Assembly: GCA_016906335.1 (NCBI GenBank)
Contig: JADEYG010000012.1
Span: 868,001 to 932,000, forward strand
Length of the DNA: 64,000 bases
Direction of reading: 5' to 3'
Origin: Novakomyces olei
Taxonomy: Eukaryota
Program-made: the position numbers and the translations under genes
Notes under the pieces: generated by a model
The model's input: the letters and a program-made list of their open reading frames with translations, nothing else
Told to the model about the DNA's origin: nothing
Database searches by the model: none
Part shown: piece by piece, positions 7,346 through 57,331 of the stretch
Numbering within the stretch: position 1 is the stretch's first letter
Layout: every line of letters begins with the position of its first letter

Positions 7346-9559
7346 CTAGTCTTCCGTCATTGCTACATCCCCATTTTGTGCTTGCTCTGCGTTGTTTCGC
7401 GTTCCAACAGTGGCAGACATTAGGCTCTGCTCTTCCAAGTTTGGGGCAGTAGCGCTTTCACGCAGAATAGGAGGCGGCCCTGTTGGGATCTCTGCGCCCG
7501 CCGTGCTTTCTGAGCCACCCACCGGCATAGTCTGCACCTCTATAATGTCTTTGGCTGCAAATGGTACTTTTGCCAGTGTTGGTGTAACTGGGTTAGAGCT
7601 CATATTTCGAGCCCTGCCACCTCCCGTGGAGTCATAGAATTCATTCTGCCTTTTTGGCTTTTGATCGTATATACTCTCTGACATATTAGCACACTAGATT
7701 ATCAAATTAAAAAGAATGAAACGAATAAAGATTCGTTTAATTGTAAATAATTCATTAGTAGACACTCACGCTTCCTTGAATCCGGGTCCGCATTGTCACT
7801 CTCCAGTGTCTCATCATCTTCGCCGTCCCGCGGCACTTGCTGCATTTGCACGCTTGGCGCAAATTTCGTGTGTGACAAATTTGAAAGAACTTGTGTGTTT
7901 ATCTTTTCCAGATATTCTCGGGTATTCATGTCGCTCACATTAGAGGTGGGTACGTCCAGCGTGTACGTGGGTCCAAAGTACTCATAGTAGTCGTTAAACG
8001 GCAGCTCCGGCCCCACTTTTTGGCCCACAATGACACCAGTCTCATACGTCCAAGCCCGGGCAACATTGCGCATAGTGTAGCCACCCCCACCTAGCACAAG
8101 TGTGGGCAGTCCAAACTTTTTCACGTACGCCACACACGCAGCGTGGCCATAAAGGCTAAGGTTAAAACAGCCCAGACGGTCTCCTGCCAGCGAATCTGCT
8201 CCACACTGCAAAACTACGGCGCCCGGTCGATACCATTCCATAATTGATGAAATAATTGGCTGAAAGACGCGATGGTAAGATTCGTCGGTTATACCTTCCC
8301 TTAGAGGGACATTAACAGCGTAGTTCTTGCCCTTACCATGGCCCGTATCCCGCAGTTCTCCAGTACCAGGGAAGAACTCTCCGTACTTGTGAAATGAGCA
8401 AGTCATTACACGATCAGTCGTATAGAATGCTTCTTCAACACCATCGCCGTGATGCACATCAATGTCGATGTACAGTACCCGTGGGTAATACCGCAACAGC
8501 TCTAGAATTCCGAGTACGATATCTGGCATTAGTTGACTGCTAAGTACAATGCTTCATAATAGTTTTGTTTGTTGTTCAATATTGCTTTTTATTATTTTCG
8601 TTTCAGACATTGTCAAGGCTTACCATTCACGTAGCAAAAGCCACTAGCCTCGGACTTTTTCGCGTGGTGAAGGCCACCCGCCCAGTTAATTGCAATATCA
8701 CACTTGCCCCGATTTAGCCGTGCTGCTCCCTCTAAAACATTAGCCAGAGCTCAATGTTATTAAACGTGTGTATATGACATTTGATTAGACGGCGCTAAAC
8801 GATGTCGAGTACACGTTGCATCAAATTATCCATTTAAAATGGGTATAAATGGTCCAAAAAGCACAAAGTATGATTGTAACGCACCCATACTGCCACCGCC
8901 ACTGATACCACAAAACTCGAAGAGGCCATCAAACACAGGACAATCATCCCCCACGTTGACTGGAAATTATTATAAATTCAGAATAGGTCGCTTTTTACAT
9001 TTAGCTTGCTGCGAAACATTGGCGTCTAGCGTCTCTGGTGAAACTCGGGATAAAAAGTCAATGTACTCGTCCGTGTGGAACTGGCACATTTCTTGCTTTG
9101 TTGCCGGTTTTGCTCGCTGTCTCATAAGCATTTTTATTGCAAGCAGGCGACTTTATAGTTCATTATCCGCGGACATTGGACAATACGCTTATTTGCAGCT
9201 GTGCTTACATAGATCTCCATTTTTCGATACAGTCCATAGTTCATTATAAGGCTGTGTGTCATACGAATTCGGTGCGGTTTCATCGGGTGCCCTGCGCCAT
9301 ATGCATAATTGCTTTAGATCAATTAGTTTGAGTAATGCGAAATCTATATCTTGCCCAATTTCCGCTGTAGAGCAAGGAAAAAACAATAAAGGTTAGTCAA
9401 GGAACACGGGTCCAAAAGTTTTGCTCACAGTCGTAAAAGTAGGCGACTCCTTAAAGTATATGTTAGCATAATGACATGACAGATCAAAACAAGAGTCATA
9501 CGTTTATTAGAATCTCCATTCGAGGCGAGGGCCTCCAAATGAGAGGCCCCGTCCGTCAT
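7346..9559 (-). CDS. RPD3: Class I histone deacetylase Rpd3/Clr6 (9 exons)
   Basis: [80 protein letters not shown]. Confidence 0.95.
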
Positions 9560-9978: not shown

Positions 9979-11968
9979 TTATACTGACGTCTTTTTGCCG
10001 GCACGGGCCATGGGGCCCCAATGCGCTGTTGGATTAGCCTGGTAACGCACCAAGTTTGCCTTTTTCGACGGCAATTTACTCTGTGGATGCGGCGACCAGT
10101 CGATTTCAGGTCTGCATGATTAAACCCGGACCTCAAATAAAATAATAATGAAGAATAGTAACGCAAAAAAATCAAACACAAGGCACAATAAATTATACGA
10201 TAAAAATAAAAACTTACGCTGATTCAAGATTTTCCAAAAGTTTTGCACTTGGGCTGCCAGGCGCAATCCCTTCACGCTTGACAGTCTTGTTCTTTGCCTG
10301 TACATTGGATTAGCAAAGGAAAAGATGTCCGATATCTTACCACATTGCGCGCCAGATCCCACATGAAACTTGGCGGCGCGTCTGTTTTCAAACCTCCTCG
10401 TAAAGCATGTGTTCCTGATACATTGTATCCAGCGTTTAGTATAGCAGATGCTACATGCGTCCATGGGGGCGGGCTCGTTTTTGTTCTTGAAAACAAAAGG
10501 CTCAAATCCCAGTAAAAAGGCACCTGTAATTCCTAGAAGCAAGTTAGTACAATTTCATTCTTAATGTGTTTCTTTTTTGCTTTCTCAAGTTCGTTTTGGT
10601 GAAGCGGAGATATCAGCACGGACTTATTTTTCCTTTTTATTTTATTTTTAATAATATATGTGGACTTCATCAATTGTCTTATTTATACCTCTTGTGCCAA
10701 AGTCACCATTCCCTTCATGCGAGGTATCGTGCCGTACGTATCTGTCGGTAAAGAATCAATGGAAGAAAGTAAAGAGGCTAGGAAGTCTTCATCATGAATT
10801 TTTCCACCCCAAAAAGGTCCTTCAATATGATGTTTTTGCCCACAATGTTCGCATATTGGGGAAACCGGCGGGCCTAATGCGCTCACATGACGCTCAATAC
10901 CCTTAGCCTCATTTTTCATGACGGTCCGACCAAAAGGCTGATTGTACCAAGAACTGCACCCAGAGCAGTGGTAGGCGATCATCGTTTTTGTATGGTTAAA
11001 CTTTACCTGTGCCGGCGAATACCGTACACGGATAAACAACCTCACATAAAAATCAATAGATAGTGAAAGCAACGGCGTTATACTGCGCCCATATCTGGCT
11101 GCTGAAGTCGCAAGTGCATGAAGCACTAATCTCAAAGCCTTGAATTATTAGTCAAACGTTTTAAAATAACGCGATTGACGAGGACTAACTAGACAGAAAC
11201 AATAACGAGACTTTGCGGGAAGAAAAAATCATAATAATAATAATAATATTCTCAAAGGATTACCAATTCGTGACAGTAGGGCGTTTTATCGCTAATCCCA
11301 CCATACAATGAAAAGCATTTTTCCGGATAGTTATTACCAGCCAGAACGGCCAGGTCGGTACAAGTGATACACACAAGTCCATCATTCTCCACTGTATTCA
11401 TGGCAGCATCTATAAAGGGTGCAGCAGTGCCGTAAGGATCTAGATCGATAACATTGAAACTAGCCTTTCGTGACTTGGCCAGGTACATAGCCATCATAGC
11501 ATCTTCGTTCATTGCTTCCACTTTGTCTTCGACTCCATTAAGCTCAATATTGCGCCTTATAGAAGTTACAGCCACAGGATCCATATCATTTGCAACGACC
11601 TGCTGTACTTCTGGTATTTCTTTAGCATACCGAATGGCTCTTAGACCAGTAGCGGACAATGCTTCTAAAATAGACAAATTGAGTTGGGGCTTGGCATCTT
11701 CCTTCCCACGATCCGTTTCAGCACTTTTCTCAGCATTTGAATTGGATTCTTCGTCAATTTTTCGCTTTTTTCCTCTCTGTTTTTGTGCCTCTTTTTCGGC
11801 TCGCTCCTTTGTCACTAATTGTGCCCAAGTGCGAATTACTGTGGTGCTAAGATCCCGATTAAACTGCTGAACAGGATTGTAGAAGACTTCATTGCGTTCA
11901 GGGAAAACGACGGTAGCAGATCCTTCAGTGAGAGGCTTAAATCCTTCTGGGATTTTTATTTCTGCCAT
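9979..11968 (-). CDS. TRM1: tRNA (guanine26-N2,N2)-dimethyltransferase (5 exons)
   Basis: VFYNPVQQFNRDLS, LEALSATGLRAIRY, IDLDPYG, SIDFYVRLF, C-terminal RYQANPTAHWGP. Confidence 0.95.
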
Positions 11969-12458
11969 ACCCACCAGAGACGTTTGGAAATTGCGCACTG
12001 TATATAAAGAACGTGTTTCAAGACTCAAAGTTGGCCTGCGTCGCACGCGTATGGCGAGTGCTAATGCACTGCCCACTTTGGAATTGCTTTGTACTAAACA
12101 CAGATTGAAATGACCAAACAAAAAAAAGATTTAATCGATAAAAAAAATTATGCAAAGATCATAGTTGCTAATCGCCTTGATTTGCTAATTCTATCGCTAT
12201 ACTGATTCTCTGCAAACACTTCTATAAAATACGCGAAACAATTCGCTCAGTATACAATATAATATTTTACGAAATATACGGATTAAATACTTGATGTGCC
12301 TACTCAGTAGGCTCAATTGTATGCCAAATCACAGGCAATTTCAGCTTTTCGGAGAACATTGCTCTTCCCGGTCTGAGGTTCGGTATCCAATTTTGCCATT
12401 TTATTCGATGATTTCTACGATTCCGAGTAAAATGGCTGGTAGATAGTAGCGAGCGCTG

Positions 12459-13804
12459 CTAGTGCTTTGAGAGCCGTTGACGATTTTCTTGTCTATGGCA
12501 ATGAACCTTTTTACCAATATGCATATGATACTATCAAATTTTGAGTTAGGCTAATAAACGGGGACAAATTTGGACGCGGTAATTTACTACGAGACTTAGG
12601 TTTGTGCAATGTATGTTACAGTCAGTGTAGTCTGAACACTTTTGTGAGATTCAGTCCTGGTAAATGACTGTACTGATGATTTATCGGTTTCGCTATTGGC
12701 CGTAGCCGTCGTGTCAGATTGAGTTTGAGTCTGGGTTACAAAACTATTGAGTTTGCTCTGACTCGCAGAGCTAGAAATATCGGCCTTATAGTAAGCGAAT
12801 AGCTTTCGTGTACGTTTGGATATAAATTGTAAAGCCTTACTCTTCGAAGAACCTGTATATCCGCACACGAAGTATACAATTCTTCGTATCCCTCCGTTTG
12901 GATTTTAGGAAAATTCCATACCCAGTATAGTCCAAAAATTCCAGGCTCTGTATCTGTAGGGATCGTAAACTCTATAGTTTTGCCTGTTCATCAGTAACGG
13001 CTATTTTTTCCTTTGAACCTACAAGGCGATTCATTTGCGGAGTCGCTGCACCCGTCTAACAATATCGTCAGCTGCACTACCAGCGTGAATTTTAGGTACT
13101 AATATTAGTATCATAAAACTTCACAAGAATACCCATTGAACGCAGTCGGTCCGGAAAGAACTCGCTCGGCTTTTACTTGTCCAATGGATAACGGCATAGT
13201 CTTATTCCAAAACCAAGTGTAATTTCCTAAACTTTGAGTAGATGCAATAGTAGATATTTACCCGGGTGAGCCTTGTTGTCTGGAGGCAAAACGTCCTTTG
13301 TCGCATGACCATTCGGGGTGTACCATCCCTGAATAAATTTAACAAAAAGCAAAAAAAGCAACAAAGAGAGAAAAAAAAAATTATAAATTATAGTCATAGC
13401 AATTAGATTAAAAGAAAGCAAGCAAGAAAGTCATTTATCCCGGTACCACAATACTGTCCCCGGGAAAACATTGAAGTCTGGGGTACTGTGAGGAGTAAGC
13501 AGCAGAGGATTGCTGCGGCGGCGAACAGGCTGGGTACGACGGAGGCTTTGTAATTAGAGTCTTCATTGTTGGCGCTTTTCCATGTATGATACCTGATTTA
13601 ATATCTTCCAGGTTTCTGCTTCGTCATTATGACCTGCGTACGCACGGATATACCCAGTGTTTCCTTTGCCTTGTCCAGATACTACTTCAAGACTGTCAAT
13701 CTGGCCAATTTAGCATGGTTGGATTCATTCTCCTTTCTTACCCAACTGTGTGCACCAACCACGACAAGGAATACTGATACGCAAAGGCTCTCGAGTCTTA
13801 CCAT
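12459..13804 (-). CDS. Secreted protein with His at the predicted mature N-terminus, LPMO-like candidate, with Ser/Thr-rich tail; multi-exon; alternative stop at 12596 if the last intron is retained
   Basis: Manual splice: MVRLESLCVSVFLVVVGA|HSWIDSLEVVSGQGKGNTGYIRAYAGH...YPRLQCFPGDSIVGWYTPNGHATKD...PTAFNDGCSDSANESPCKTIEFTIP...GLYWVWNFPK...EELYTSCADIQV + S/T-rich region. Confidence 0.8.
13056..13133 (-). other. [D1,2] spliceosomal twin intron: internal intron 13099-13132 (34 nt) splits the donor G|TACCT of a 44-nt external intron
   Basis: AAT G [g (gtattc..actaatattag) tacct..gctgacgatattgttag] AC GGG; only two-step removal gives in-frame N-D-G-C. Confidence 0.75.
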
Positions 13805-14266: not shown

Positions 14267-17132
14267 CTATCCATGAGACTGATATTTTAGTACTCTACTT
14301 GAAAATGCTCTTTCTATGCTACAAAAAATTACAAAATGCTTTCTTCCGGCTCGTAGCTCAAACTCTCGATAAGTTTGAGTAAATCCTGCAATATTTAATC
14401 ACCATTAACGAGAAAAAAAAAAAAAAAAAAGAAGACGAACAAAAATTACAACAAATTTAACTTGATGGGAAGTAAAAACTAAATAAATAAATAAATAACT
14501 CTGTTTAAACGTGGAAACTTTTGTAAGCATACCTTTGTCTGCTTTGCACAATCAAAAGCGACGCCAGCCATCAGCTGCTTCACATCACGTTCATGCAACC
14601 CATTGTCGTCCTTGCTTCCTATTATATTTTGAAGCTTTTCACAGGACGCCAACATTCTCTCTAAAAGAGGCCTTGCCTGTGGGACAGAGCCCTTACTTGC
14701 GCGCATAGCTTCGTCTGTCGATTGCACAGAGTCACGAACTGCCATCGCAATAGTGTCTACGTATTGGGCAGTAGCCGCTTTGCTTTCTTCCTGTCTTACT
14801 GCCTGCAGTAATCTTTGTATGCTTTCTACTACCGCCTCTGTATTCCGCTCCAAGTGAGACCTCAATTTTATCAGGGGATCATTAGCCGGTAGTGGAGGCT
14901 GATCAGGTAAATACCCGGATGCCCGCTCCCGAGAACTAGGCACCCGCTCCCGAGAATATGACAATTGCTCACGCTGACTAGGCATCCTCTCTCGCGGACT
15001 AGACATCCTCTCTCGTAGAGCATCTGCGCCAAAAGAACTTTGGGGCAAAGAGCTAAGACTCATATTTGACGGTGGTGTACCCGGACTAAACGGCCGTGGA
15101 GCAGCTCGAGGGCTCATAAACGGTTCAAATTCGCTTACTGTACTAATATGGCTCCCAGTTTTTTGCTCATTTTCCTCTATCCCAGCCAACGAAATTTCAT
15201 TGTCACTGTCCTGCTGTCGACAGGCCACGTACTGTGCCAGCCGTGCCACCGAAAGATAAAGCATATTGGCTGCTGCTAGCAGTTGTAACCTGTGCCTCTC
15301 CAAGTCGCTGGCAATTGCACTTTTGTCGCCGACAGTACTGCCATTGCTTTTCTGCGCTTTGACAATAGTCTTTGTAGACAAAATTAAATTATTTGTACTA
15401 TCGGAAAACTCACTGATCAAAGCATCAAGGACAGAACCTTCAAACTGTGGGCGATGAGCCTCAACATCCTTGTGAATTGCACGTACTGCCGCCACTACTG
15501 TGCGCACCTGTGCCAGTGAAGATCTGGGTGAGGACTCGTGAGCCGCTTGCACAAGCTCATCAATGGCCATTTGCATCCGGATGATATGGTGCACTTTTAT
15601 AGCACCTGTGTCATGAGCGCGACTGGTCTCGAAGAGCACAAGACTGCGGCCGTCTGCAGATGGAGTAGCCTGCGGTACTATTGGCTGAACACCACGCGAC
15701 GCCTGCAGTTTCGAAATATGTGTTTTCAGGGACTCAACCTCTGTTTTAAGTGTCTCGTTTTCATAAACAAGATTTTCAAATTCTGCTGCGTGGGATTCCT
15801 CCTTGTTTGCAATCTCACGCATTTCGTTGAGCAGATTTACGGCCTCCTGCCTTACTTCCTCTGTAACTTTTTCTTGGTCTTCCATCTCTGATTTTAACCG
15901 TGCATTTTCTTCCCGTAAATGCTGCACTTCAGAATCATCCGAGATAGGGGCTGGCGAAGAATTTTTAGCGGCTAAAGCTGCCTGTGAATCCGACAGCTCT
16001 TGTTCAAGTCTACCGATTTTTTGATCGGCCTCTTCAACTTGTGCTTGTAATTGTGCAACCCGTTCAAAATCACCTTCGCGAGGAGCTGAGGATCTCGAAT
16101 GCTCTGCGTCCACAATATCCTCGACCACAGCTGTAGATTTGTTGGGCGTCAATACGTCATGCTCTGCAAAATAGGGCGATGGTGCCGCGCCAGGCGGTCT
16201 GGCTTGGGGCTGATGTTGCGGACGATAGCCGTGAGGGGGTTGGCCCGATCCCGAATTCGATCTGAGACCTTTTTGATTGTTCCCTATCGCATACTGTCCG
16301 TGTGCCTGTGATGATTAGATAAAGATTCAGTTGAGCGATAATTGAGAATTTAAACTCGACACAGTGCTCGAACGAGAACAAAACAACTAAACAGACCAAG
16401 AACATAGAATAACTGGAACAATTACGGATACAGCAAGCACAAGATTTTTAGACAAACTTACGAGAGAAGGGAACCGTTGCTCAAGCTCGCAGACCACATC
16501 GCGGCAAAGTTCACCGAATCGATCGTGAAGTGTACTCAACTTTTTCCGAGCACGATTGCGTTTTGGATGGTAGGCGTCTTCGGATACAAGAAACTGTAGA
16601 CCTGTACGCGCACTGTTTAACCGTCGATTTAGCTCATCGAAAACGTCCGTGGAAAGCTCTTGCAGCTGACTAGGAGTCAAACGCATCAGTTTTTCTCGTG
16701 CACCTGCAGTCTGCGCAGCCAATTCGCCTTTGATATTAGTCTTGTTACTTTTCGCCCCTTTGAACTCGTGTCTCTTTGTTGTTTACTTTCAGCCTGTACG
16801 GTAATTGCTGTATTATTTGTATAATTCTTGCATTATTTGTATTTATTTCCACTTTATTTCAATCTCATTCTCCCCTCAAAGAACCGTCCAAACATACCTC
16901 TCTGCAGCAATGGGAACATGTAGCTCCGTAGAGCATTGTAATGAACAGCCGCAGTCTGTGAAAATGCCGCGGAATTTTCGTCTGATCCGCGTGAACGTAC
17001 CGAACTTACGCGTTGCCGATCGCTTGAACCATCTTCAATACCAAACGACCCATAACGCGAAAGTGCCGACATCTCTGAAGGCGCCGGCGACGCGCTCCGC
17101 ATAGGCGGCGGCCGCACTGGCCGAGGAAGCAT
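14267..17132 (-). CDS. SPA2: Polarisome scaffold Spa2 homolog (two SHD/GIT repeats, coiled coil, GIT1-C-like C-terminus), spliced
   Basis: AREKLMRLTPSQLQELSTDVFDELNRR; HPKRNRARKKLSTL; TPNKSTAVVE; MAGVAFDCAKQTK. Confidence 0.9.
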
Positions 17133-28712: not shown

Positions 28713-28960
28713 CTCTTTTTGGAGTACGGTGCTTTGCTGGACTCGAAGGATTAGATTAACGAAATAATGCGGCTTTCATCTTGAATCTTGCCTCCAATTA
28801 ATCGATGCGCTATAGGGGCGACTGCTGAATTCTTTTACCCGTCTGTTTCAAAAACACTTTATTCGATTTCGGAACAGAAATGCCGACGACTCTGTGGTTT
28901 GTTTACCGGCCTTGATCAATGCGCTGGCAGTGTCATCTTTGGAATGCCCTAGCAACAGCA

Positions 28961-30556
28961 ATGGAAGATTTCCCCCTAAGTACGCAAGCTCTTGTTCAAA
29001 GGCAGTTTGCTTCTGCGTCAGAGGTGGCGCCCATTCTAATTTCTTCTTCACCGCCGTTGTCACCATCACTCGAAAGGGAACGGTTCCACGCACCAATACG
29101 GCATCGTGTTTCGAGCAAAGACTCGTGTGATAATTGGACTGGTGATTTTGCTGACACTGAAAAGCTGCGGCAATCTCTACTATCATTCGGTAACGACAAA
29201 GAAGAAGTGTCGACCGTAAAGTCGACCTTTACAGCAAAGAAAAGGCAAACTTTACGCGCAAACTACAGCACTGATCTGTCGGCAGCTCGAACTATAACAA
29301 GCAGAGCATTAGCACACTTTTATTCTGAAAATGAAGCGAAGCGTGATAACGCTGGCCGTGAGTCTGCAAAGGTTACAGATGAGAAGCAGACAAGCTATAA
29401 CCAATGGCAGAGATGCTCCCTGCGAGCGTTGGAAAATAATAAAAAGTCATTAAATAGACGAGTGGACCCAGACACGGCTTCGCCTCCGAAACGTAAGCAG
29501 CGTCGGCGAAAAGTTCAACCAGAAAGCGTTTTAGAGAGCCCAAAGACGGCTTGTTCACGGCTACGGGCTTTACGGCTTTGTTCGTCAGCATTAATAGCCC
29601 AATCAAAAAGCTTAGATCAACCTCAAAATCGGACTGATAAAGGCGTACCTGAATCGCGACTCGGTGGAAATAAAGATCGACCTTTATTTCGAGCGGCACA
29701 GAATAGAGAAGAGGCTACATTGCCCATTCTCGAGATTGACTCGAGTTTTGAGCTAGAAGACTTGTCTGCTTACAATTGCTTAAAGCTGGCTAATGCTCCA
29801 CTTGTCATCACTAGCGGATCCAGTGGTTCTATGAATACGGTTGAAACTGGAGACGGTAAAAAAATTGTTTGCTCACAAATTCGCAATTCGCAGGACTCGT
29901 CAGACGTAGAGTTAGACCCATTGCCGCTTAGTTTGGGCATAGACGGAAATATCGAGCTTCCAATATCTCAAGCCTCGAAACCAGAATCCCAGGGCTCAGA
30001 GCCTTCACTTTCACAACAGTCAGTGGCAAAGACCACTCTATCTCAACAACAAAAGCACAAAATCCAGCCGCTTAATCGTTTAGCTCATGAGCTTGGTATC
30101 ACGGCTTTGCAAGATACGCACAAGCTTTCCATGGAGGATTTGAAAAAATTGAACGATAGCTTTGGGTTTAAACCAGCTCGTTCCAAGGCCAAATTAATAG
30201 AGACAGTTACGGCATGTCTTGGTGCGCAGGGCTACATATTTACACAAAACCTTAGACCTGAAGATGAGCCTCGGCAAAAGCGAAAACGATCCCCGAAAAG
30301 GAGCAAAAAGGACGGTTCAGAGACCACTAAAGAGGCAGAATTACAAACCACTTTTGATAATATAACGAAAGCGGTCACATCACTACCATTAAATTGGGTA
30401 TGGAGAGATATTCTGTTATACAGACCGTTAGTACTTGAGGACGTATATTCCTACTTGAAAGATGAGCATGGAATTGCACTCAGAGATTTGGCCTTGCTGC
30501 GCCGCTGGTGTGATGAAAGAGGAATTTGTCAGAGAAGCAGAGCTTTGCAGAGGTAA
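28961..30556 (+). CDS. SLX4: Structure-specific endonuclease subunit Slx4
   Basis: SAP-like LSMEDLKKLNDSFGFKPARSKAKLIE and C-terminal WRDILLYRPLVLEDV...LRRWCDERGIC domain. Confidence 0.8.
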   Translation: MEDFPLSTQALVQRQFASASEVAPILISSSPPLSPSLERERFHAPIRHRVSSKDSCDNWTGDFADTEKLRQSLLSFGNDKEEVSTVKSTFTAKKRQTLRANYSTDLSAARTITSRALAHFYSENEAKRDNAGRESAKVTDEKQTSYNQWQRCSLRALENNKKSLNRRVDPDTASPPKRKQRRRKVQPESVLESPKTACSRLRALRLCSSALIAQSKSLDQPQNRTDKGVPESRLGGNKDRPLFRAAQNREEATLPILEIDSSFELEDLSAYNCLKLANAPLVITSGSSGSMNTVETGDGKKIVCSQIRNSQDSSDVELDPLPLSLGIDGNIELPISQASKPESQGSEPSLSQQSVAKTTLSQQQKHKIQPLNRLAHELGITALQDTHKLSMEDLKKLNDSFGFKPARSKAKLIETVTACLGAQGYIFTQNLRPEDEPRQKRKRSPKRSKKDGSETTKEAELQTTFDNITKAVTSLPLNWVWRDILLYRPLVLEDVYSYLKDEHGIALRDLALLRRWCDERGICQRSRALQR

Positions 30557-33071: not shown

Positions 33072-35954
33072 TTACGCTATACGGTTCTTTAAGACGGCCG
33101 TAATTTGTTCGTCAGTGAGATGTTCAATAAGCAGCTCTGCGCGAATGCTATCAAAGACACCATTTTCCAAGCCGGTCGTGCTCGCTACTCCTGGACCTGA
33201 GCCTCTTTCTGCTCCGTTGTAATTAAGAACTACCAAAATCTCAGAGGCACGGGCGAATTTATCCCTAGACTTGTAAGACGGAGAGATGCGGCTTATGATT
33301 TCCTGTATCTCTGATTCGAGGTAAATAGCCCCCATCTCGTTACACTTTATGGACATTAATTTTCGCTCCAACGGGTGCACTACTGCGGAAAGTGCCACCT
33401 CTATTAAAGAGTCCAGTGCGGTTGTTGAGAGTGTTTTGCGTACAATTTCAAAAGCGATTTCCCAAATGCTCAAGAATCTGCTCTGCAATGCCTTTGATGC
33501 CGATAATTCCTCAAACTCCATTTGCGTCAAAACGAACCGTATATCCCTAAACGAATCTGACAGAATAAGCCGCAGTTTAGGTCGTATTTCCGTCTGGAAA
33601 ATATCATCGAGCGCACTTGAAAGCAAATTGTTAAAAAAGGCATTTATAGTACCAATTGACCTCAGAGTCTCCGCCGCCTTTTTCGCATCGTCTTCGAAGA
33701 CAAAGTACACTTGCCCATCTATTTCTCGTAATCGTTCCTCCACAATTCGCTTAAGATACTGCCGAGAAAGATCAAAATTATTAATGCAAACAAGCATTTT
33801 GTCCCTTGCTGCCTCTTCCTGGGGAGTTTGACGTACTATCGCTTTATTAGCGGCAGGAAAGGCCATTTTTTCAGATAGCTGACGGTAATAATTTGTTGTA
33901 CTTTGCCACAAACGTTTTAATGCTGCCACATAATCATTCTCAAGAATTCTTCGGACACCGAGTCCCACATTCACCAACGCTTCAATTTGCCCAGTCGAAA
34001 TTGCCCGCTCCAGTACCAAATTAATTATATACATTACATCATCAACAGCCGTTGATACGGGAGGCGAAGTAGAGTGATCGAAATCATTTATTTGGAACGC
34101 CTTCTCCACAGATCTTCGTGTGAACCAAACTTCAAGCGACTCGTAAGCTTCTCGGAAACGATTTTGTAACATTTCATGCACTACAATTGACGTCAGACAC
34201 GAAGGCCTGGTCATCTGGCCGTCATCTGATTCTGAATCGTCGGAAACCTAACGGGTTAGTTCCTTTGTGATATGGAAGAACAGTATGCGCTGAGCTTAAA
34301 TGTAAAAGATTGACAAATTTATGTCATGATGCGCTTATCGAACGCCTAAGTATCATTACCCTGTACTTTATAGCAATAAACTTTGAATACAATGCCCAGC
34401 TGGATAGTATTCCAGCTATTTCACGTAGCAGTTGATCCACAACGCTGGTGGTAATAACGTCGTCTTCTTGGGAACTTCTTTCATTGTTTGCTCCCAAAAT
34501 AGCTTGCGAGAGAAAGGTGAACGTAAATGATTTAGCATCCGAAAGCTTGATGTTAGTCTCAAATAAAAAGAGGGCAAAACCATTAATTAGATTAAATATT
34601 ATTGAAATTAATCAATAGAGCAATAAAACAATAATAAAACAATTAGAAAAAAAAGCAAGAAAATTTTGTAAATGCATACCTTGCGCGCAACACGACGTTG
34701 GTCCCAAAATGTGTCGAGGATCATGGCACCACGGCTTTGGCATTCGGTTTGCAGCATTTCAATCACAAGCCTTATGCTGCTTCGCCCATAAAATCGTTGT
34801 ACAATTGGTGAATGGTGATCGATCGTACGGGCGATATTTTCCAGCAGCGTTTGGAAAGCATGCGCGTAAAAGGTGGGCGCTTCATCTAAATATTAGAACT
34901 TATTTCATAGCGGGAGTAATCTTGTATTTGATTTTCCTCCTTTTATAATCGATTAATGCGTTTGATATAGCATTTTCGTCAACATACCGCTACCACTCAT
35001 GACCGCACGAACTTTGGTGGTTATAATACCAGAAACTGACTCTGTGTAAAGCTTAAGGCCACTCGCATCCCGTCCAATAAGTGGAAACAATTTGAAAAAT
35101 CGTGAGACTTTTTGCTGATCCTTAGTTCTAGCCGCATTCTGGAATTCTCGTTGAAACAGGTTATGTAATAATTCCGACACATTTTCCAAGTATACGCCAG
35201 GAACTTCAGGTATCTCTGTAGATGGAACCATTTGTTTAGCGGTCTTCCCGTTTATGATCGATTCCGGCACCGCACGAGCTCGATGGACAGCCTTGGCAGC
35301 TTCTTCCCATTCTTGAGCCTCGAGAGCTGTATGGACACGTGAAACAGCAGCCTAAATGTTAGCACCAAACTTGAGAAAGAAAGTAAAATTCATTGATTAT
35401 TAAATCACAGACAAAACATTAAAAAAAACCAAAACCAAAAAAAAGAAAAAGAAAAAGAACCAAAACCGACATTCTGATTCCAGATATCGATGTAGTGGCC
35501 AGACCTACCTTTAATTCCTGAACCTCTTCAATATGTTTTAGGCACTCTTTTACGCGTGACTACAACAATTGTTAGAGAATGCTGCAGCTGAAGCTTCCGA
35601 CCAAGAGAATACCTGCTCTGATTCAATCTGATAAACTGTGCGGCTGATTCGACCAGCTTTGGTCGAGGATTCGTGCAACATTTTGAGTAGCGAAATTTCG
35701 TCGAATTGTAGTCTTTGTACCATTGCTCTGTTCAAATGGTTAAGAAAAATTCGTGGTCAAGTTCATCTTATAAAATCTGACACGTACTTTATAACTTTAA
35801 GCTTTTGCATATCGCCATTGCTATCGGCGGCACCCTTTTCATGGACAACTGCCTCCTCTAGCGCGTCCGAAACGCGTTCTTCTTCGAGATCAAGCGAATG
35901 AAGGCATTCTTGAACCTCTTCAAGAGTGCTCGCCGACTCAATATCCACCGGCAT
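33072..35954 (-). CDS. COG4: Conserved oligomeric Golgi complex subunit 4 (7 exons)
   Basis: WEEAAKAVHRA, SRFFKLFPLIG, WFTRRSVEKAFQI, STAVDDVMYI, RDKFARASEI. Confidence 0.9.
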
Positions 35955-36223
35955 TTTTCACTGAAACAGGATCAGAGATTAGACCATCGTTCAGTGCCAA
36001 TGTATCATTCTCAATGTGCCATCCAGTCCAGCGCCGATTAATGGGCTTTTTGACGCTACTACGTACTTTGTATGAGTCGTATAAAAATACAGCATAGTTT
36101 AATCCTAATTATGTGTAATTTTAATGAGAGTCTGCATCGCTGTATAGTATATCGTACTGTATATAATAGACTTTTTGCTCGAATAATCATGCAAATAATA
36201 ATAAGCACAACCGTTCCAAGATC

Positions 36224-37617: not shown

Positions 37618-38976
37618 ATGGATCACCGGACGTTTTGGTCAAATGGAAATAGTAGGAACGCTCAAGATGGAAGCGCCGACTTTGAAAGCAGCCAAGATGG
37701 CGTGTTCTCGTTTGGGAGCAGCTTGCGACGTAAAAAACGGGTCAGCTACCACCTTGATCCGGATGTAGGCAATTTTCATTTTGGAGATCGCCATCCTATG
37801 AAGCCGCACCGACTCGCGCTTACAAACAGTCTTGTGCTGGGATATGGCCTTCATAAGAATATGGAAATATACTCACCGCGCAAAGCGACAGATGAGGAAA
37901 TTGCACAGTTCCACACGGAGGATTATATAGATTTTTTGCAGCGTATAACACCGGGCAACGTTGACGAGTTTTCTGCCGTTCTTTCCCGCTTCAATATCGG
38001 GGACGACTGTCCGATTTTTGATGGGATTTACGATTTTTGTACTCGCTACGCAGGTGCTAGTTTGGACGCGGCTCGACGTCTGTCACAAAACCAATCTGAT
38101 ATCGCAATCAACTGGTCCGGTGGACTGCACCACTCCAAAAAGTCGGAAGCTAGTGGGTTTTGCTACGTAAATGATATTGTGCTGGCCATATTGTCATTGC
38201 TCCGCTGTCACCCGCGTGTTTTGTACATAGACATCGATTTGCATCATGGCGATGGAGTACAAGAAGCCTTTTACCACACTGATAGGGTTATGACTCTAAG
38301 TTTTCACAAGTACAATGGCGACTTTTTTCCAGGCACAGGCAATTATACCGAAATCGGAACGGGTCTAGGCGAGAACTATGCGCTCAATATTCCGCTCAAC
38401 GACGGTATTGATGATGCATCCTATTTCGCACTTTTCCAGAGTATAGTGGAGCCTGTAATAGCCACTTATTCTCCCACTGCTATAGTATTGCAATGCGGAG
38501 CAGACTCGCTCGGCTGTGACCGGCTGGGTTGCTTTAATTTGAGCATCCGAGCGCACGGGGCCTGTGTAAAATACACAAAAACATTTGGCTTACCTACTCT
38601 TGTACTCGGAGGCGGAGGGTATACCGTGCGAAACGTTGCATTGGCATGGTGCTATGAGACTGGATTATGTTTAAATGTTGAACTGCCTGATCAGTTACCC
38701 ATCACAAGTCCCTACATTCAATTTTGGGCGCCTAATTATAGTTTGCACCCTACTTTAGCGGGCAGGATGGACAATAAAAATTCAAGAAAGTATTTGGAGT
38801 CCATTCGCACTAAAGCACTGGAGCAGTTGAGGTATCTCCGTGGTGCACCAAGCGTTCAGATGCAGGAAATTCCTCCGGATATACAAGGACTTCGGGATGA
38901 TTCTGAAGCTGCTTTTGCCGATGAGAGGAAGGACTCGGAGGCTGGGAAAGAGGACCACAAATGGTCTGCTGTATAG
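37618..38976 (+). CDS. HOS2: Class I histone deacetylase Hos2 (intronless)
   Basis: [72 protein letters not shown]. Confidence 0.9.
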
Positions 38977-41468: not shown

Positions 41469-42161
41469 CTGTTACAAGGCACTATATAAAATTTGTACTA
41501 TTAAACGCCTACAATTTTGGTTTGTAGTATAAGTTTCAAAGCAATACAAGTCGCCAGCGTAATATGCCGTACGTTATATTAATATGGGAAAATACGAACA
41601 AGTAACACTACTGCCCCTCGTTATACTGCTGGTACTCGTCCGGTTGCCCAGTTTGCTGTTAGATAACGTGAAATCTCACACGGTAGCAAACGCAGACAAA
41701 ACAATATATGTTAAAATTAAACCAGATTCTGGATTCTCGAATACCCAAGGCGAACGCCTCAGAGAAAAAGAAAATCACAAAAAGTCTCGTAATAGACACA
41801 AGCGAGAAGGATTGAGCGCGTCTCTTTTCGTGTAAGCCGATTTAGTGATTCCTAGCGTTGTGCGATCAATTGTCTGACCATTAACAGTGCTTTGTTCGAG
41901 CAGATACACGGGGAGATTAGTATTTTGTTGGGGATCGCGCGAACATGTCTTTGGCTTGAAAGCTGGTGCCTTACTTCTTCATATCTCGCTCCTAGACCTA
42001 ACGGGGAAACCATACACTCATTTTGACTCAAGAAGATTTTCTTGTCTGACCTTTTTCGCTCCATTTTGTCCGTTTTTTTCCTTCTTTAATTCGTCTAAAA
42101 GTCATTCGTTACTGAACGCGCAACTTGTTAACGCGTCCAATACTGTACCCACCACAATACC

Positions 42162-45100
42162 ATGCTATTGGTACCAAAAATTGCCGCGGGTGCGGCGTCT
42201 TACCCCGTGCATGTGATTGTTATTGCTGGATTGCTTTCGAGTCTTGCGTACTTTGCGCTATTAGACATCTTTAGAGCCGGCGAATTTACACTAGACGCAA
42301 ATTACAGTGGGACGGGGTCCCTTCTTAGTGATGTTGTGAGCAGCAATACAGCAAAGTACTTTGTGAAAAACGAATCTGGCCACTGGTACCTTGACAATCA
42401 GCCTTCAGCTTCATTACAAGACCCCTCCCTTTTACCGCTGACGCTTTTGCGTATAGTTCACCCGGCAGATCAGGCAGTACTTCCCGTCCTCGAAAGGCTC
42501 TATGCAGGGGCCTGCTATACTACAGGCGATGAGGGACAGTGTTTGGGTGATGTTGTTCCATACGGCCCCTCTGATCTGTCAGAGATTGTAATTAATCGTC
42601 AAAAATTTGCAAAGTTGGACGTTTGCGACATTGCTATCCCCGGACTGCAGATGCAACAGCCGGCAGGTGGAGAAAAAGCCAGGCTCGATATACTTTGGCT
42701 TGGCCGAGCCATTGTTCGTCTGGTTGAAACGACAATTCGCTTGGCACGCAGTGCCAGATCCATTGACTTTTTTATAATGCTAGTGGGTTACGTGGCAATG
42801 CACAGTAACTTTGTTTCGCTCTTTATAAACATGAAGCATTTGGGCTCCAAGTTTTGGTTGGCTTTCACCGTGATTACATCCTCATCTTTTGCGTTTCTCA
42901 TGGCTCTTATTATTGCTCATTCGCTGGGCCATACAATCAATCCTGTTCTATTGGGCGAGGGCCTCCCCTTCCTCGTGGTAACGATTGGGTTTGAGAAACC
43001 CATAATGTTGACAAAAGCGGTGTTGCTCAGGAGCCCTAGCACGTCGCGTCATCCAATCACGCGTGATGTTGCGAGTGCAGTGGAGGACAAGGGCCCTACA
43101 ATTCTTAAAAACTATTTTATTGAGATTGCCATCCTGCTCTTGGGCGCTCTCTCTGGCGTTGAGGGACTGCGGCAGTTTTGTTCGTTGGCGGCAATAATTC
43201 TGTCACTAGACTGTGTCTTGCTCTTTACCTTTTACGTGGCCATTCTAACGATTAAGCTGGAGGTGCAAAGGATCAAGAGGCACACGTCTATCCGACGAGC
43301 GCTAGAGGAAGAAGGCATGAGCTACCGAGATGCAGAGCAAGTAGCCTTGTGCAACGACCCTCGTGGCCCCAATGATAAGATCTCCCAATCGTTTATGGCC
43401 TCGGAAGGCTGGTTTAGGGTATTCGGGGGTAATCGGATCCGGGAGTCGAGTATTACAAAGTTTAAAATTGCCATGGTCTCTGGTTTTGTGCTGGTGAACG
43501 TGTTGAATTTGTGTTCGCTGCCGCCTCTGGCCGGGATCAATTTTGCTCCTGCCTCGGTGCTGGACCAGTCCTCAGTGTTGGCAGAGACAGTTAAGCTCTC
43601 TGCTCTGGAAGATGTCTCTGACAGGATTCTTTCACGGATAACTGTGGGCAATGGCTTCAGTACTGTACATCTGGAAGTACGTGAGCCGGTTGTGTTTGCT
43701 CATATTGCCCCACTGGCCGCCCGTGCGTCTAGCGGTATTGTGAGCAGTGCAATCGCGCAGTGGACACGGTCACTTGAGTCTTCGATCGTAAGCAAATGGA
43801 TCTTTTCCTGCCTCATAATCAGCCTGGCCACTAATGCCTACCTGTTTAATGCTGCCAAAGCTGGGGGAATGATGCAGACCATTAGCCCGCCACCCACTAC
43901 AGCAAACCTGGACAATTCAGGCAGCGAAGTCCATAGAAAATCTGACTCTGTAAAGCTTCAGCAGGCAGGCAGCAAAGCCCAGCCTGCGGATGGCGCTTTA
44001 GCCGTTCAAGCTGCCTCTGCCGATACAGCGGCTGCGAGTGCTAGTCTCTTATCAACAGAAGAGGCAATGGCAATAGTCAAGAAAGGCCGTGGATCAACTC
44101 TGACGGATGAGCAATTGGTCTCCCTTGTGATAGCCAAACAGGTCCCCCTTTATGCGGTGGAAAAAGTGCTCGGCAAAGACTTGACGAGGGCAGTTCGTAT
44201 TCGGAGAGCGGCAGTTTCGCGTACGAGCACAACAAAGACGCTGGAAGTAAGCAATTGCCCCGTGGAGAACTATGACTATTCCCGTGTCCTAAATGCCTGC
44301 TGCGAGAACGTGATTGGCTACACGCCCATCCCTCTGGGAGTAGCTGGCCCATTGGTTATCGATGGCACTAGTTACTATATCCCAATGGCCACAACCGAGG
44401 GAGCTCTGGTTGCGAGCACTATGCGTGGGTGCAAAGCAATTAACGGTGGCGGCGGTGCCGTCACCGTTCTCACACAGGACCAAATGACACGGGGCCCGTG
44501 TGTAAGGTTCCCAAACCTGAGGAGAGCAGGGGAAGCCAAATTATGGATCGACAGTGACGCAGGCCAGTCTGTGCTCTGCAATGCCTTCAACAGCACCAGC
44601 CGGTTTGCCCGGCTGCGGAGTGTCAAAGCCGCTCTGGCTGGAACTAACCTGTACATCCGCTTTGCCACCCTGACTGGTGATGCGATGGGCATGAATATGA
44701 TCTCCAAGGGCGTTGAGCACGCCCTTGAAGTGCTGCACAATGAGTGTGGATTTGAAGATATGCAGATTGTCAGCCTGTCTGGCAATTACTGTATAGACAA
44801 AAAGCCAGCTGCTTTGAACTGGATCGAGGGCCGGGGCAAGTCGGTTGTTGCCGAGGCAATTATCCCGGCAAATGTGGTTAGATCTGTTCTTAAATCCGAG
44901 GTGGATGACCTCGTAGAGCTGAATATTGCAAAGAATCTGATTGGCTCGGCTATGGCTGGCAGCGTGGGCGGGTTCAACGCCCACGCAGCGAATATAGTAA
45001 CCGCCGTCTTTCTCGCTACCGGACAGGATCCCGCGCAAAACGTGGAGAGCAGCAACTGCATGACGCTTATGCGTAACGTTGACGGCGATCTGCAGATCTC

Positions 45101-45407
45101 TGTCTCAATGCCCTCAATCGAAGTCGGCACTATTGGTGGAGGCACTGTGCTGGAACCACAGGGGGCCATGCTCGATCTGCTCGGAGTGAGAGGGCCTCAC
45201 GCTTCTGCTCCGGGGTCAAATGCCCGTCAGCTTGCTCGTATCGTCGCCGCTGCCACTCTGGCTGGCGAGCTGAGTCTTTGCTCCGCCCTGGCTAGTGGGC
45301 ATCTGGTCAAATCGCACATGGCACACAACCGTTCGTCTGCACCGAGCCGTGCTCCCACTCCGGCTCCGCCGGGGGGAGCGAATACGCTTGTAAATGGGAA
45401 ACATTAG
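42162..45407 (+). CDS. HMG1: HMG-CoA reductase (membrane-bound, sterol-sensing domain), intronless
   Basis: EGLPFLVVTIGFEK, CCENVIGY, PMATTEGALVAS, GDAMGMNMISKG, TGQDPAQNVESS, GHLVKSHMAHNRS. Confidence 0.97.
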   Translation: MLLVPKIAAGAASYPVHVIVIAGLLSSLAYFALLDIFRAGEFTLDANYSGTGSLLSDVVSSNTAKYFVKNESGHWYLDNQPSASLQDPSLLPLTLLRIVHPADQAVLPVLERLYAGACYTTGDEGQCLGDVVPYGPSDLSEIVINRQKFAKLDVCDIAIPGLQMQQPAGGEKARLDILWLGRAIVRLVETTIRLARSARSIDFFIMLVGYVAMHSNFVSLFINMKHLGSKFWLAFTVITSSSFAFLMALIIAHSLGHTINPVLLGEGLPFLVVTIGFEKPIMLTKAVLLRSPSTSRHPITRDVASAVEDKGPTILKNYFIEIAILLLGALSGVEGLRQFCSLAAIILSLDCVLLFTFYVAILTIKLEVQRIKRHTSIRRALEEEGMSYRDAEQVALCNDPRGPNDKISQSFMASEGWFRVFGGNRIRESSITKFKIAMVSGFVLVNVLNLCSLPPLAGINFAPASVLDQSSVLAETVKLSALEDVSDRILSRITVGNGFSTVHLEVREPVVFAHIAPLAARASSGIVSSAIAQWTRSLESSIVSKWIFSCLIISLATNAYLFNAAKAGGMMQTISPPPTTANLDNSGSEVHRKSDSVKLQQAGSKAQPADGALAVQAASADTAAASASLLSTEEAMAIVKKGRGSTLTDEQLVSLVIAKQVPLYAVEKVLGKDLTRAVRIRRAAVSRTSTTKTLEVSNCPVENYDYSRVLNACCENVIGYTPIPLGVAGPLVIDGTSYYIPMATTEGALVASTMRGCKAINGGGGAVTVLTQDQMTRGPCVRFPNLRRAGEAKLWIDSDAGQSVLCNAFNSTSRFARLRSVKAALAGTNLYIRFATLTGDAMGMNMISKGVEHALEVLHNECGFEDMQIVSLSGNYCIDKKPAALNWIEGRGKSVVAEAIIPANVVRSVLKSEVDDLVELNIAKNLIGSAMAGSVGGFNAHAANIVTAVFLATGQDPAQNVESSNCMTLMRNVDGDLQISVSMPSIEVGTIGGGTVLEPQGAMLDLLGVRGPHASAPGSNARQLARIVAAATLAGELSLCSALASGHLVKSHMAHNRSSAPSRAPTPAPPGGANTLVNGKH

Positions 45408-46961: not shown

Positions 46962-47732
46962 TCACGTTCGCCGCTTAAGCTTTATTTGGAAAACCACGCT
47001 GGGTAGGTCGATCGTGTCGGCAAACACTTCAGCCGAAGCATCTAAATTAGCCAGAGCGCCGCGGATTATGCCACAAGGAAACCAACCAAACTTTTGATAA
47101 ACGTTAGCAAACGCTGAACAAAGTAGCGATCAGTTAAAGACGTATTGTACTAAATAAGTATTGCATAGCAGTAAGCAAATACAATTAAAGCAATACTTTC
47201 AAAAGGACTTGAAACACGGCATATTCACTCATAAAACTTTACCTTTTGCACGCGAGCTGAAAGTTCTGTTGATGAACAGTTGGCAGACATTCGTTGAAAC
47301 CAACGAAACGAGTTGTCAGTCAAGACAAAAACACCCTGTGATATGAGCCAAAGGAAAAGGGTAGCGTGATATCCTACCTTGTGGTTGGTCTTTAGATTAT
47401 CAATCTGTTTGCCATACAAAATCATCCACAGATCCTTGCACAAGAACTTTATCATATCTAAATCGTCCCGAAACCGCGCATGATCCCGTGAGAATCTGAA
47501 ATTAGCGTTCAGATGTACGTATCAAACCATACTTTTCGACCAACGCTTGTCCGACTTTGTAACCTACTCGCTCGAGCTTGTTGTATGTTTCTGACTGCTC
47601 CTGCTCCGCATTCTCTTCCTGCACCCACCGTTCCATCGACATTGTCATTTCAATCATTAGCAGTTCCAAGCAAGTTGCATTGACGAAATTCTGGGCGTAA
47701 GGCTCCCCCACGGCAGTAGATTGCCTTTCCAT
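46962..47732 (-). CDS. TRS33: TRAPP complex subunit Trs33 (4 exons)
   Basis: LERVGYKVGQALVE, DMIKFLCKDLW, KQIDNLKTNHKGVFVLTDN, FPCGIIRGAL. Confidence 0.92.
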
Positions 47733-49617: not shown

Positions 49618-51229
49618 CTACGCCGATATAGACCCCTTTTCGAGCCGTACGGCGGCGTTACGTCGGATCATATCCAGGTTGACTTTAGGTCCAACGAGCT
49701 GGCGGATATCGGAGACTCCGTACTTGATCATCGTCGGCCGTTCCAGTGAAAGACCCCATCCAAGAGCACGGACATCCGGCGGCAGTCCCATCGGCTGTAA
49801 CAATTCCGGTCTAAACATGCCAGAGTTTCCAACTTCGACCCATTTACCCAGTCCACTGTGGTAACTGAAGATTTCGAGTGAAGGCTCAGTGTACGGGTTG
49901 TAAGCAGGCTTGAAACGGAGATTCGTGACCCCAAGCCGAGCGAAAAATGTCTCCATAAATCCAATAAGGTGGCCAAGCGTAATATTGTAGTCCACAATTA
50001 CTCCCTCTATTTGATGGAACTCGGCTAAATGTGTAGCGTCTACTGCTTCATTGCGGAAAACCCGGTCAATGGAGAAAAGCTTGGCAGGACGAAACCCACC
50101 GGGCCTATTAGCAATCTCATAGATCATCGCGGCCGACACAGAAGTAGTGTGTGTACGGAGCACTAATTTCCGGGCCTCGGCTTCGCTCCAGGGATAGCGG
50201 TACCCGATACTTCCACAATCCCCGCCATTCTCATGAACTTGTTTTACCCGGGCCACGTAAGCCGGTTCGGGGAGCGTATCCGTTGTTGCCGGATCCTTTG
50301 TGAAAAAAGTGTCTTGCAGGTCTCGGGCCGAGTGCTGCTGAGGTACAAAAAGCGCATCGAAGCACCAGAACGAAGACTCAACGAAACGATTGGTGGGCAT
50401 TTCTTTGAAACCCATCTCGAAAAAGATGGCCCGAAATTCGGAGCGCACTTTCATAAGCGGATGCAAAGCTCCACCTTCAGGCTCACGGCCGAGAGCATCA
50501 AAATTATAGGGTTTAAACTGGGCCGTGCGCCAAGCGCCACTTTGCAACATATCCACAGTAACATCCGTGTTCAATTGAGCTACGGAAAGTGCAAATTCCG
50601 GCCCTTTTTCAATAGCAAAGGCAAGACGCCGAGTTACACGCAGTAATTTGCGTTTACGAAGATCTGCCAGTAGTCGCCCATCATGACAAGCACCGTTCTT
50701 TTTGATTTCTAAGAGCGCTTTTTGAGTAGAGTCCTCAATCTCGTCTTTCGCCGCATACAGCCGATCGCCGTCTTTGCGGATCCATCCTAATTTGAAAGCG
50801 TTACCTTGACCAACTCCAGCACTGGGACCCAGTTGCGAACGTACTTCTCCCAGAGTTAAACCTTGTGTCGCCTGAGCCAGTAAAGAGAAAACTTGGGCCT
50901 CATGCGACCCATTGTCTACTACACTGTTTCCCTCGGCCGTTAACTCGATTACGTCACGTTCCAGTTTTTGAAATGTAATCATCTAATGGTTAGCCGGTCG
51001 AATGACCAGTTTATCTCTATTTGTTATAATTAATTATTTTTTTGGTCTTTTTCCTGTGATTGATCGTTTCAACTCTTACGTTTCGGCTGGCCAGGCTCGA
51101 ACAAGCCGCCTGTACCTCGTCATGTGATAGAGGGGATGCTGAGCCCGGTAATTGCAGTAAACTAGAATCATCGATTTTGCCTTGTTTGTCGAGTGTATGA
51201 AGCAGCAATTGCTGCACCGGAGTCGCCAT
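49618..51229 (-). CDS. FRS2: Cytosolic phenylalanyl-tRNA synthetase alpha subunit (2 exons)
   Basis: LHPLMKVR, FDALFVPQQHSARDLQDTF, DRVFRNEAVDATHLAEFHQIEG, KPAYNPYTEPS, WGLSLERPTMI. Confidence 0.96.
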
Positions 51230-56568: not shown

Positions 56569-57331
56569 TTGTGCTTTTTCTGACTAAAGGGGATCCGTTT
56601 TTCCAGTAAAAACCGTAAAGGCTCTCGCGTTCGCGTCAAATATTTGTTTGTGTGTATTTTATATATATATATATACAAGGCCGGCTAGCTTACTTGCTGA
56701 TCATGTCGTTTTTGTTAATTTTCCCGCACCCAGTCCCGTTTTTGTAACCGATAAAGAAAACCCTTATTTCGCCCCGCTTCAGTCCTTGAACGGGCTTGTC
56801 GCCTGGTCTAGACACACAAGTAAATCTTTGTGATCGATCTAGTATGTGGGCTTGGTTAGTTGAATGTGTATTAATAGATCATACGGCACTATTATCTCTA
56901 CCTTAATTGGCCAATCAAACTCGCATTCTTTAACACGAGTTGTCCATTTGAAACAGCGCGGTAATTGGAGGCAAGGCTGTCGCGTTGTACAGGCGACGCA
57001 ATGCTTTCTAGAAGACTACTAGACTGGTGTTGGCGTATGCTTAAGGGTCATTGTAACGATAAATGAGTACGAGTTGGGTTTCTGTATTCATATGTTTCAG
57101 GTACGCCAATTCACTGTTTGGGAAAGCCTCATTCCGTTACAAGCGCGTTGAGTAGTCCGAATTTATATGCTTCACTCCTCTTAATTCCCTGTTACCAGCA
57201 AAGTAGTACTACGCCGATATACCATTGTGGGATAATGCCGTTGTGCGTTGTTAACGGCTATCGTGCCAGAAGAAGGCAGCTTTGGGAATTCTGATGAGTG
57301 CTTAAATCCAGCATTATAGAATGTGATACAC

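Follow-up and report, generated by a model that had tools for sequence, protein, structure and literature searches.

How can the message of a gene for a protein resembling lytic polysaccharide monooxygenases (LPMOs) be joined across 78 nt that contain a stop codon and whose removal as a 77-nt GT-AG intron breaks the frame? This question is raised by a minus-strand gene of the DUF7492 family in Novakomyces olei, located at 13804-12596 of the window, a stretch of 64,000 nucleotides (positions 868,001 to 932,000 of contig JADEYG010000012.1, GenBank assembly GCA_016906335.1) to which all coordinates below refer. The first-pass annotation had read the 78 nt at 13133-13056 as a spliceosomal twin intron (stwintron) of the [D1,2] type, in which the donor of an external intron is disrupted by an internal one, and had held that such an intron was required for the gene. 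After testing against alternative splicing models, the [D1,2] stwintron has more support than any other reading of the sequence, because of the spacing found in homologs, the homolog scores and the window-specific splice-site scores. We consider it probable that the site is a donor-disrupted stwintron, and we infer the two splicing reactions and their order from the DNA.

The bases and coordinates described for the site were all correct on sequence check. Exon 5 (13226-13134, minus strand, as are all parts of this gene) ends in ...TTC AAT G in phase 1, and exon 6 (13055-13023, 33 nt) starts with AC GGG TGC and contains two conserved cysteines. The complex intervening sequence between them, the proposed [D1,2] stwintron, spans 13056-13133 and would appear as a GG..AG gap in the mature mRNA. 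Within it, the putative internal intron (13099-13132, 34 nt) has the donor GTATTC at 13132-13127, the acceptor TAG at 13101-13099 and the branch element ACTAAT at 13109-13104, which fits DYURAY and places the branch A at 13105, 6 nt before the 3' end. The single G at 13133 would be the split-off first base of the external donor, joined to T13098 after removal of the internal intron. The remainder of the external intron (13056-13098; 43 nt, or 44 nt with G13133) starts with TACCT at 13098-13094, ends in the acceptor TAG at 13058-13056, and contains the branch element GCTGAC at 13072-13067 with its branch A at 13068, 12 nt before the end. Each constituent intron thus has a branch element of its own, as had been claimed. 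Joining of G13133 to TACCT would create GTACCT, a predicted donor.

The reading-frame consequences agree in most points with the earlier description. Retention of all 78 nt leads into a TGA at 13113-13111, removal of the inner unit alone gives GGT ACC TAA, and removal of 34 nt followed by 44 nt, with GTACCT as the newly formed donor, restores an in-frame FNDGC. The earlier claim of a broken frame after a single GT-AG excision holds for the 77-nt intron from GTATTC to the distal TTAG, which frameshifts into a TGA in exon 6. It fails in general, and the premise on which the stwintron had been called required is wrong: with four single GT-AG excisions the product stays in frame and contains no stop. 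Two of them use the donor GTGAAG, with a TAG acceptor, and remove 48 nt (13124-13077) or 69 nt (13124-13056, product FNGYSYGC). The third, from GTATTC to a CAG (13132-13046, 87 nt), loses the D-G-Cys turn, and the fourth, from GTTTTA to a CAG (13119-13072, 48 nt), keeps F-x4-Cys. The choice among these models has to be made on other evidence than the frame.

In the proposed mechanism, GTATTC at 13132, the only good donor in the area, would pair with the nearest branch element and acceptor, ACTAAT and the TAG ending at 13099, and the 34-nt internal intron would be removed. G13133 would then be joined to TACCT, giving the donor GTACCT directly behind ...AAT G. Together with GCTGAC and the TAG ending at 13056, this donor would serve for excision of the external intron (44 nt). 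The resulting junction of G13134 and A13055 would supply the Asp codon in the conserved turn D-G-Cys. Were GTATTC instead paired with the distal acceptor first, 77 nt would be lost and the frameshifted message would end in exon 6.

Evidence for complete removal of the 78 nt comes from the homologs. The motif [FY]-D-D-[GSE]-x-C is present in all 132 family members that cover the site, at a constant distance from a preceding strand with an end like LSGPxx. With G13134 and A13055 joined into an Asp codon, the host product reads LSGP-xx-F-N-D-G-Cys, which is the family spacing up to D-G. The spacing LSGP-xx-F-x-D-G is kept only by the product of complete 78-nt removal, whereas in the single-excision products D-G is either preceded by 3 or 10 additional residues or lost together with the Cys. 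The alternative products were also scored against a near-homolog profile of 14 sequences. The product of the stwintron model reached 204.7 bits over its whole length, 6-8 bits above each single-excision product (198.6 bits for 13119-13072, 197.0 for 13132-13046, 196.8 for 13124-13056 and 196.5 for 13124-13077). In BLASTP comparisons, the stwintron product scored best against 8 of the 8 nearest homologs, with a margin of 3-8 bits. Against a broad family profile of 137 sequences, a one-piece alignment was obtained for the stwintron product only.

Splice-site quality was judged by introns of the same window. Fifteen introns were taken as supported, each fixed by homolog alignment or by the continuity of Pfam profile coordinates: six in the host gene, the others in genes for TRM1, COG4, a histone deacetylase, CGI-121 and a subunit of the transport protein particle (TRAPP) complex. 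Homolog junctions and Pfam coordinates replaced a codon-bias intron finder, which was too noisy and returned 56 candidates while missing known introns. The supported introns are 35-156 nt long (including 35, 37, 39, 41, 47 and 47 nt), and the distance from branch element to 3' end is 6-13 nt in those with a consensus element. Their donors start with GTA in 15 of 15 cases, with G at +5 in 7 and G at -1 in 11. A donor matrix was built from them (training range 4.2-9.3 bits, leave-one-out 1.9-8.2), and percentiles were taken as the rank among all GT sites of the window. The internal donor TGG/GTATTC scores 6.1 bits (percentile 95.5) and the reconstituted external donor ATG/GTACCT 6.7 bits (percentile 96.9). 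The same GTACCT in its unspliced context, TTA/GTACCT at 13099, reaches 2.5 bits. The donors of the single-excision models CTT/GTGAAG and GAA/GTTTTA score 0.3 bits (percentile 52.3) and -0.7 bits (percentile 39.3), respectively. A donor similar to the reconstituted one, GTACCG, serves intron 3 of the host gene, which homology fixes. Both proposed branch sites (ACTAAT at 6 nt, GCTGAC at 12 nt) are better than those in several host-gene introns, and the 44-nt external intron lies inside the observed length range. A strong donor-like CTG/GTAGTG (6.5 bits with the window matrix) is also present at 13075-13080 (minus strand) within the external intron, and no in-frame use was found for it.

How often such an arrangement arises by chance was examined at two levels. 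A scan for the G-GT..AG-T pattern, which had been proposed for the genome, was run in relaxed form over both strands of the window and recovered the site at 13056-13133. Its only other match, 56560-56449 (minus strand), lies inside the uninterrupted 526-aa frame of UGP1 and was taken as chance. Block-shuffled sequences gave 12.7 +/- 3.4 matches compared with the two observed, so the pattern alone is not above chance, which weighs against giving it any value by itself. The context does exceed chance, with the pattern standing exactly where the conserved frame needs a 78-nt gap. When the interior was shuffled, an internal branch site, an acceptor and a following TA occurred together in 323 of 20000 sequences (1.6%), and such internal signals were found in none of 19 other introns of the window.

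Several further observations speak against a stwintron at this site. The 34-nt internal intron is 1 nt under the shortest supported intron (35 nt) and below the 42-nt minimum applied in the published stwintron searches (PMC9024468), and GTACCT disagrees at +4 and +5 with GURWGY, the donor consensus of fungi (PMC7138796). The broad family profile gives full-sequence scores of 158.4-159.5 bits for all models, without separation, because HMMER scores the rival products as two local domains. The F-N-D-G-C of the host product is one residue short of the motif found in 132 of 132 homologs and has Asn for the first Asp. The residue between Gly and Cys is missing, and Asn replaces that Asp, in every model that keeps exon 6. 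The host gene is therefore atypical at exactly the junction in question. Moreover, the intron-retained reading F-N-G-Y-S-C keeps the Phe-to-Cys spacing of the family, and the 13119-13072 model owes to this its second place in the profile test. Finally, no stwintron in the lineage of the host turned up in the literature searched.

Three explanations compete with the stwintron. In one, the GGG run at 13132-13134 contains an extra G, either as an assembly error or as a recent real insertion, and the true or ancestral state is an ordinary 77-nt intron, GTATTC..GCTGAC..TAG behind ...AAT G, removed in one step; a real insertion that had not been rescued would make the gene a fresh pseudogene. We regard this as unlikely but not negligible. 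It weighs against the stwintron that a single base less would yield the same best-fitting FNDGC protein, that a 77-nt intron with such a donor, branch site and acceptor would be typical for the window, in which intron lengths run from 35 to 157 nt, and that the 34-nt intron would become unnecessary. The indel would, however, have to lie at this exact spot, and a run of three identical bases is a weak hotspot for sequencing errors. No sign of indel errors was seen elsewhere in the window: 12 open frames of at least 300 aa, totalling 19.6 kb and in several cases matching Pfam families end to end, show no other frame break, and GT-AG introns account for each of the 15 other junctions. It would also have to be a coincidence that an internal branch site, an acceptor and a TA are present, with the frequencies given above. 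Alternatively, one conventional GT-AG intron with a weak donor, any of the four in-frame candidates, might be used instead, which appears quite improbable. All four leave an open frame, the 69-nt version makes use of the good distal branch site and acceptor, and the GTTTTA version comes second in the profile test, as described. Yet GTG and GTT donors occur in none of the 15 supported introns, and the two scores lie near the median of all GT sites. None of these products is the best match to any of the eight nearest homologs. Both 48-nt versions skip AGs and need a branch-to-acceptor distance of 28-33 nt, as opposed to the 6-13 nt in the window. In the 87-nt version, the AG closest behind the branch site is passed over, and a cysteine found throughout the family and in AA11 LPMOs is lost.

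The host gene could also be decaying or non-functional, with no splicing route that restores the protein and with stwintron-like signals that are accidental. We judge this very improbable. The deviating motif beside the junction, an extra cysteine in exon 3 and a best homolog identity of only about 42%, with no close relative in which conservation could be followed, would fit such decay. Against it, all other exons are open, usable splice sites are present in each of the six other introns, and four of the junctions agree exactly with homologs. Ten of 13 invariant columns of the near-homolog alignment are kept, the losses being one Asp to Asn, one Tyr to Phe and the one-residue spacing; the signal peptide, the N-terminal His and an NGH motif are intact. 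Accidental internal signals, at 1.6% of shuffles, would be rare. Other routes were considered and rejected. The donor resembles the U12 consensus, but a U12-type intron has no matching branch element here and would leave the frame unrepaired. The [A2,3] alternative route fails, as removal of 13099-13056 first rebuilds no AG (A13055 comes next). A micro-exon flanked by two independent introns would contain an in-frame stop, and a shifted non-AG acceptor was likewise discarded.

The host gene was modelled with eight exons, encoding 263 aa under the stwintron model, with the stop codon at 12598-12596. Besides exons 5 and 6, these are exon 1 (13804-13742), exon 2 (13700-13593), exon 3 (13545-13447), exon 4 (13328-13262), exon 7 (12983-12841), which completes the second Cys codon of exon 6, and exon 8 (12784-12599), the last coding exon. 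The junctions HSW-ID, LNQ-P, SIV-GW and HPG-NY are free of gaps against homologs. Intron 3 (13329-13446, 118 nt), the one with the GTACCG donor, leaves the junction DSIV-GWYT, which is ungapped against DAIV-ASYT of the Saitoella homolog P0004. Intron 4 (13227-13261) measures 35 nt with the ends GTAAAT..TAG, and its junction HPG-NY is identical in homologs such as P0009; introns of such a size are therefore in use in this gene.

Exon 7 alone matches Pfam PF24320 (DUF7492) with an E-value of 1e-09 and 38.5 bits, above the cut-off of 27. When exon 7 was used as a query, a word-indexed protein search returned no matches and an exhaustive HMMER search returned 24. A profile search started from 14 of these 24 sequences retrieved 647 family members; PF24320 was found in 120 of the 120 members listed, and the family includes Saitoella and many Eurotiomycete proteins. 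The family profile also matched the AA11 LPMO 9exj in the PDB (E 1e-08), and the first cysteine of exon 6 aligns with a cysteine of that protein. An AlphaFold model of P0004 (mean pLDDT 64.8) had 37 PDB matches at E <= 0.001; among the matches listed, nearly all are AA9 or AA10 LPMOs, with low TM-scores of 0.23-0.49. The predicted host protein starts with a hydrophobic leader, a predicted signal peptide, followed by His, in the context ...VGA/HSW. The label LPMO-like, already given to the gene by the first-pass annotation, is justified at the level of sequence and predicted structure because of the His-Ser-Trp after the leader, the AA11 profile match and the matches of the P0004 model to LPMOs, in addition to the PF24320 match. 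A literature search for DUF7492 found no paper that mentions the family.

Some minor features of the gene and its relatives were also recorded. The extra cysteine of exon 3 lies in the context RLQC and brings the mature domain to five cysteines, compared with four in the Saitoella homolog. The last exon, 12599-12784 (minus strand), encodes a Ser/Thr/Gln-rich tail ending in ...TYIAQT, with no obvious hydrophobic C-terminal signal of the glycosylphosphatidylinositol type, and its 3' end is a model. In the homologs P0003, P0006, P0007, P0008 and P0010, the start Met lies inside the loop between the two conserved cysteines, and these entries resemble exon-level or truncated open reading frame calls.

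That stwintrons exist in some ascomycetes, as the first-pass annotation stated, is documented. Stwintron types and fungal consensus elements are defined in PMC7138796, and [D1,2] stwintrons have been experimentally established in other fungi (PMC9024468, PMC12403724, PMC5587772), where they are removed in two consecutive standard reactions (also PMC7138796). The [D1,2] stwintrons of Pezizomycotina (Aspergillus, Trichoderma, Hypoxylaceae and Xylariaceae) have the same architecture as our candidate: a G precedes a complete internal U2 intron, joining of G and U makes the external donor, and a separate branch site and acceptor belong to the external intron. The candidate differs in that both of its donors are without G at +5, the external GTACCT also being off consensus at +4, and in that it lies in a DUF7492 gene of a host lineage that, judged by its best matches, is apparently not Pezizomycotina. 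It also differs in size. In Hypoxylon sp. CO27-5, 117 [D1,2] stwintrons of 114-313 nt were reported from a search that demanded constituent introns of at least 42 nt (PMC9024468). The candidate measures 78 nt (34 + 44), and the description of it as exceptionally compact fits this comparison, although stwintrons shorter than 114 nt may be on record elsewhere.

The complex introns of the Lipomyces reticulon-like gene ([D4,5], [D6,7] and [D7,8]) are nested U2 introns near the external 5' end as well, in a fungus that does not belong to Pezizomycotina; the authors regarded the one in L. lipofer as the first stwintron in the strict sense beyond this subphylum (PMC7138796). They differ from the candidate in the insertion point within the donor, in their length of 140-320 nt, in the gene concerned and in intermediates verified by reverse transcription PCR. 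A [D1,2]/[A2,3] alternatively spliced stwintron in a DHA1 antiporter gene has been used to explain 1-nt intron shifts (PMC5587772). The candidate resembles it in the one-nucleotide offset between a canonical donor and the exon end, at a run of G, and in that a canonical intron, displaced by 1 nt, would remain if the internal intron were deleted from the DNA; it differs in that the [A2,3] route is absent. Recursive splicing through a zero-length exon and nested introns, known from Drosophila, mammals and Cryptococcus neoformans BOT1 (bioRxiv 10.1101/224170, on such splicing in yeasts), share the stepwise removal and the regeneration of a second donor. In recursive splicing the first step occurs at the true exon end and the whole GU comes from the downstream part, and the introns concerned are long (375 nt in BOT1), whereas the candidate is minimal and its first step would take place 1 nt inside the intron. 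The term Taphrinomycotina is absent from PMC9024468 and PMC12403724, and PMC5639578 refers to Taphrinomycotina only as a group without the introns under study or as an outgroup.

Judged by its sequence, the stwintron would most likely be new, very small, and located in a new lineage and a new gene family. The chances appear about even that no stwintron smaller than this one of 78 nt (34 + 44) is known and that it is also the first from an early-diverging ascomycete belonging neither to Pezizomycotina nor to Lipomyces. If the reading is true, obligatory two-step nested splicing would work at the lower size limit of introns and with donors that have no G at +5. The amount of functional LPMO-like mRNA could then be set by which acceptor, near or far, is chosen, since removal of the 77 nt in one step leads to a frameshifted message. 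The GGG run would represent a present-day case of the intermediate stage postulated for 1-nt intron shifts, and the site would offer a 78-nt natural substrate for studying the pairing order of splice sites. The known range of stwintrons would also widen, taking in another part of the fungal tree and sizes much smaller than published searches allow; similar cases would then escape these searches as well as standard gene finders, and their host genes would be mis-annotated as broken. Should a 1-nt assembly error lie behind the site, the result would reduce to a genome-polishing note.

The placement of the host rests on protein identities. For UGP1 of the window, the highest identities to database sequences are 74-75% (S. 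japonicus, Saitoella complicata), with identities of about 70% spread across ascomycetes. Because of these values and the identity of about 42% for the DUF7492 protein, the host lineage would be an early-diverging, poorly sampled ascomycete, possibly of the Taphrinomycotina. Among the neighbouring genes recognised by Pfam, those for HMG-CoA reductase (42132-45404, plus), UGP1 (55006-56583, minus), STI1/HOP (57764-59440, plus), a PIGO/PIGG-like protein (59930-62350, minus) and an Slx4-like protein (28916-30553, plus) are single long open frames. Genes for PheRS alpha (49621-50982, minus), two histone deacetylases (7705-9152, minus; 37618-38973, plus), TRM1 (10275-12130, minus), COG4 (33075-35957, minus) and a GIT/Spa2-like protein (14482-16782, minus) were also identified. 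The GTATTC donor had been said to be used in COG4 as well. This is plausible for an N-terminal intron candidate at 35560-35612 (minus strand), 53 nt from 35612 with TCTAAC 12 nt from its acceptor; the short frames flanking it have no Pfam match, and its support is that of the reading frames. In the TRAPP-subunit gene, a 37-nt intron at 47496-47532 (minus strand) is fixed by Pfam coordinates and has its branch site 6 nt from the acceptor. Other supported introns are mostly 80-156 nt long, so intron lengths in the window look two-peaked.

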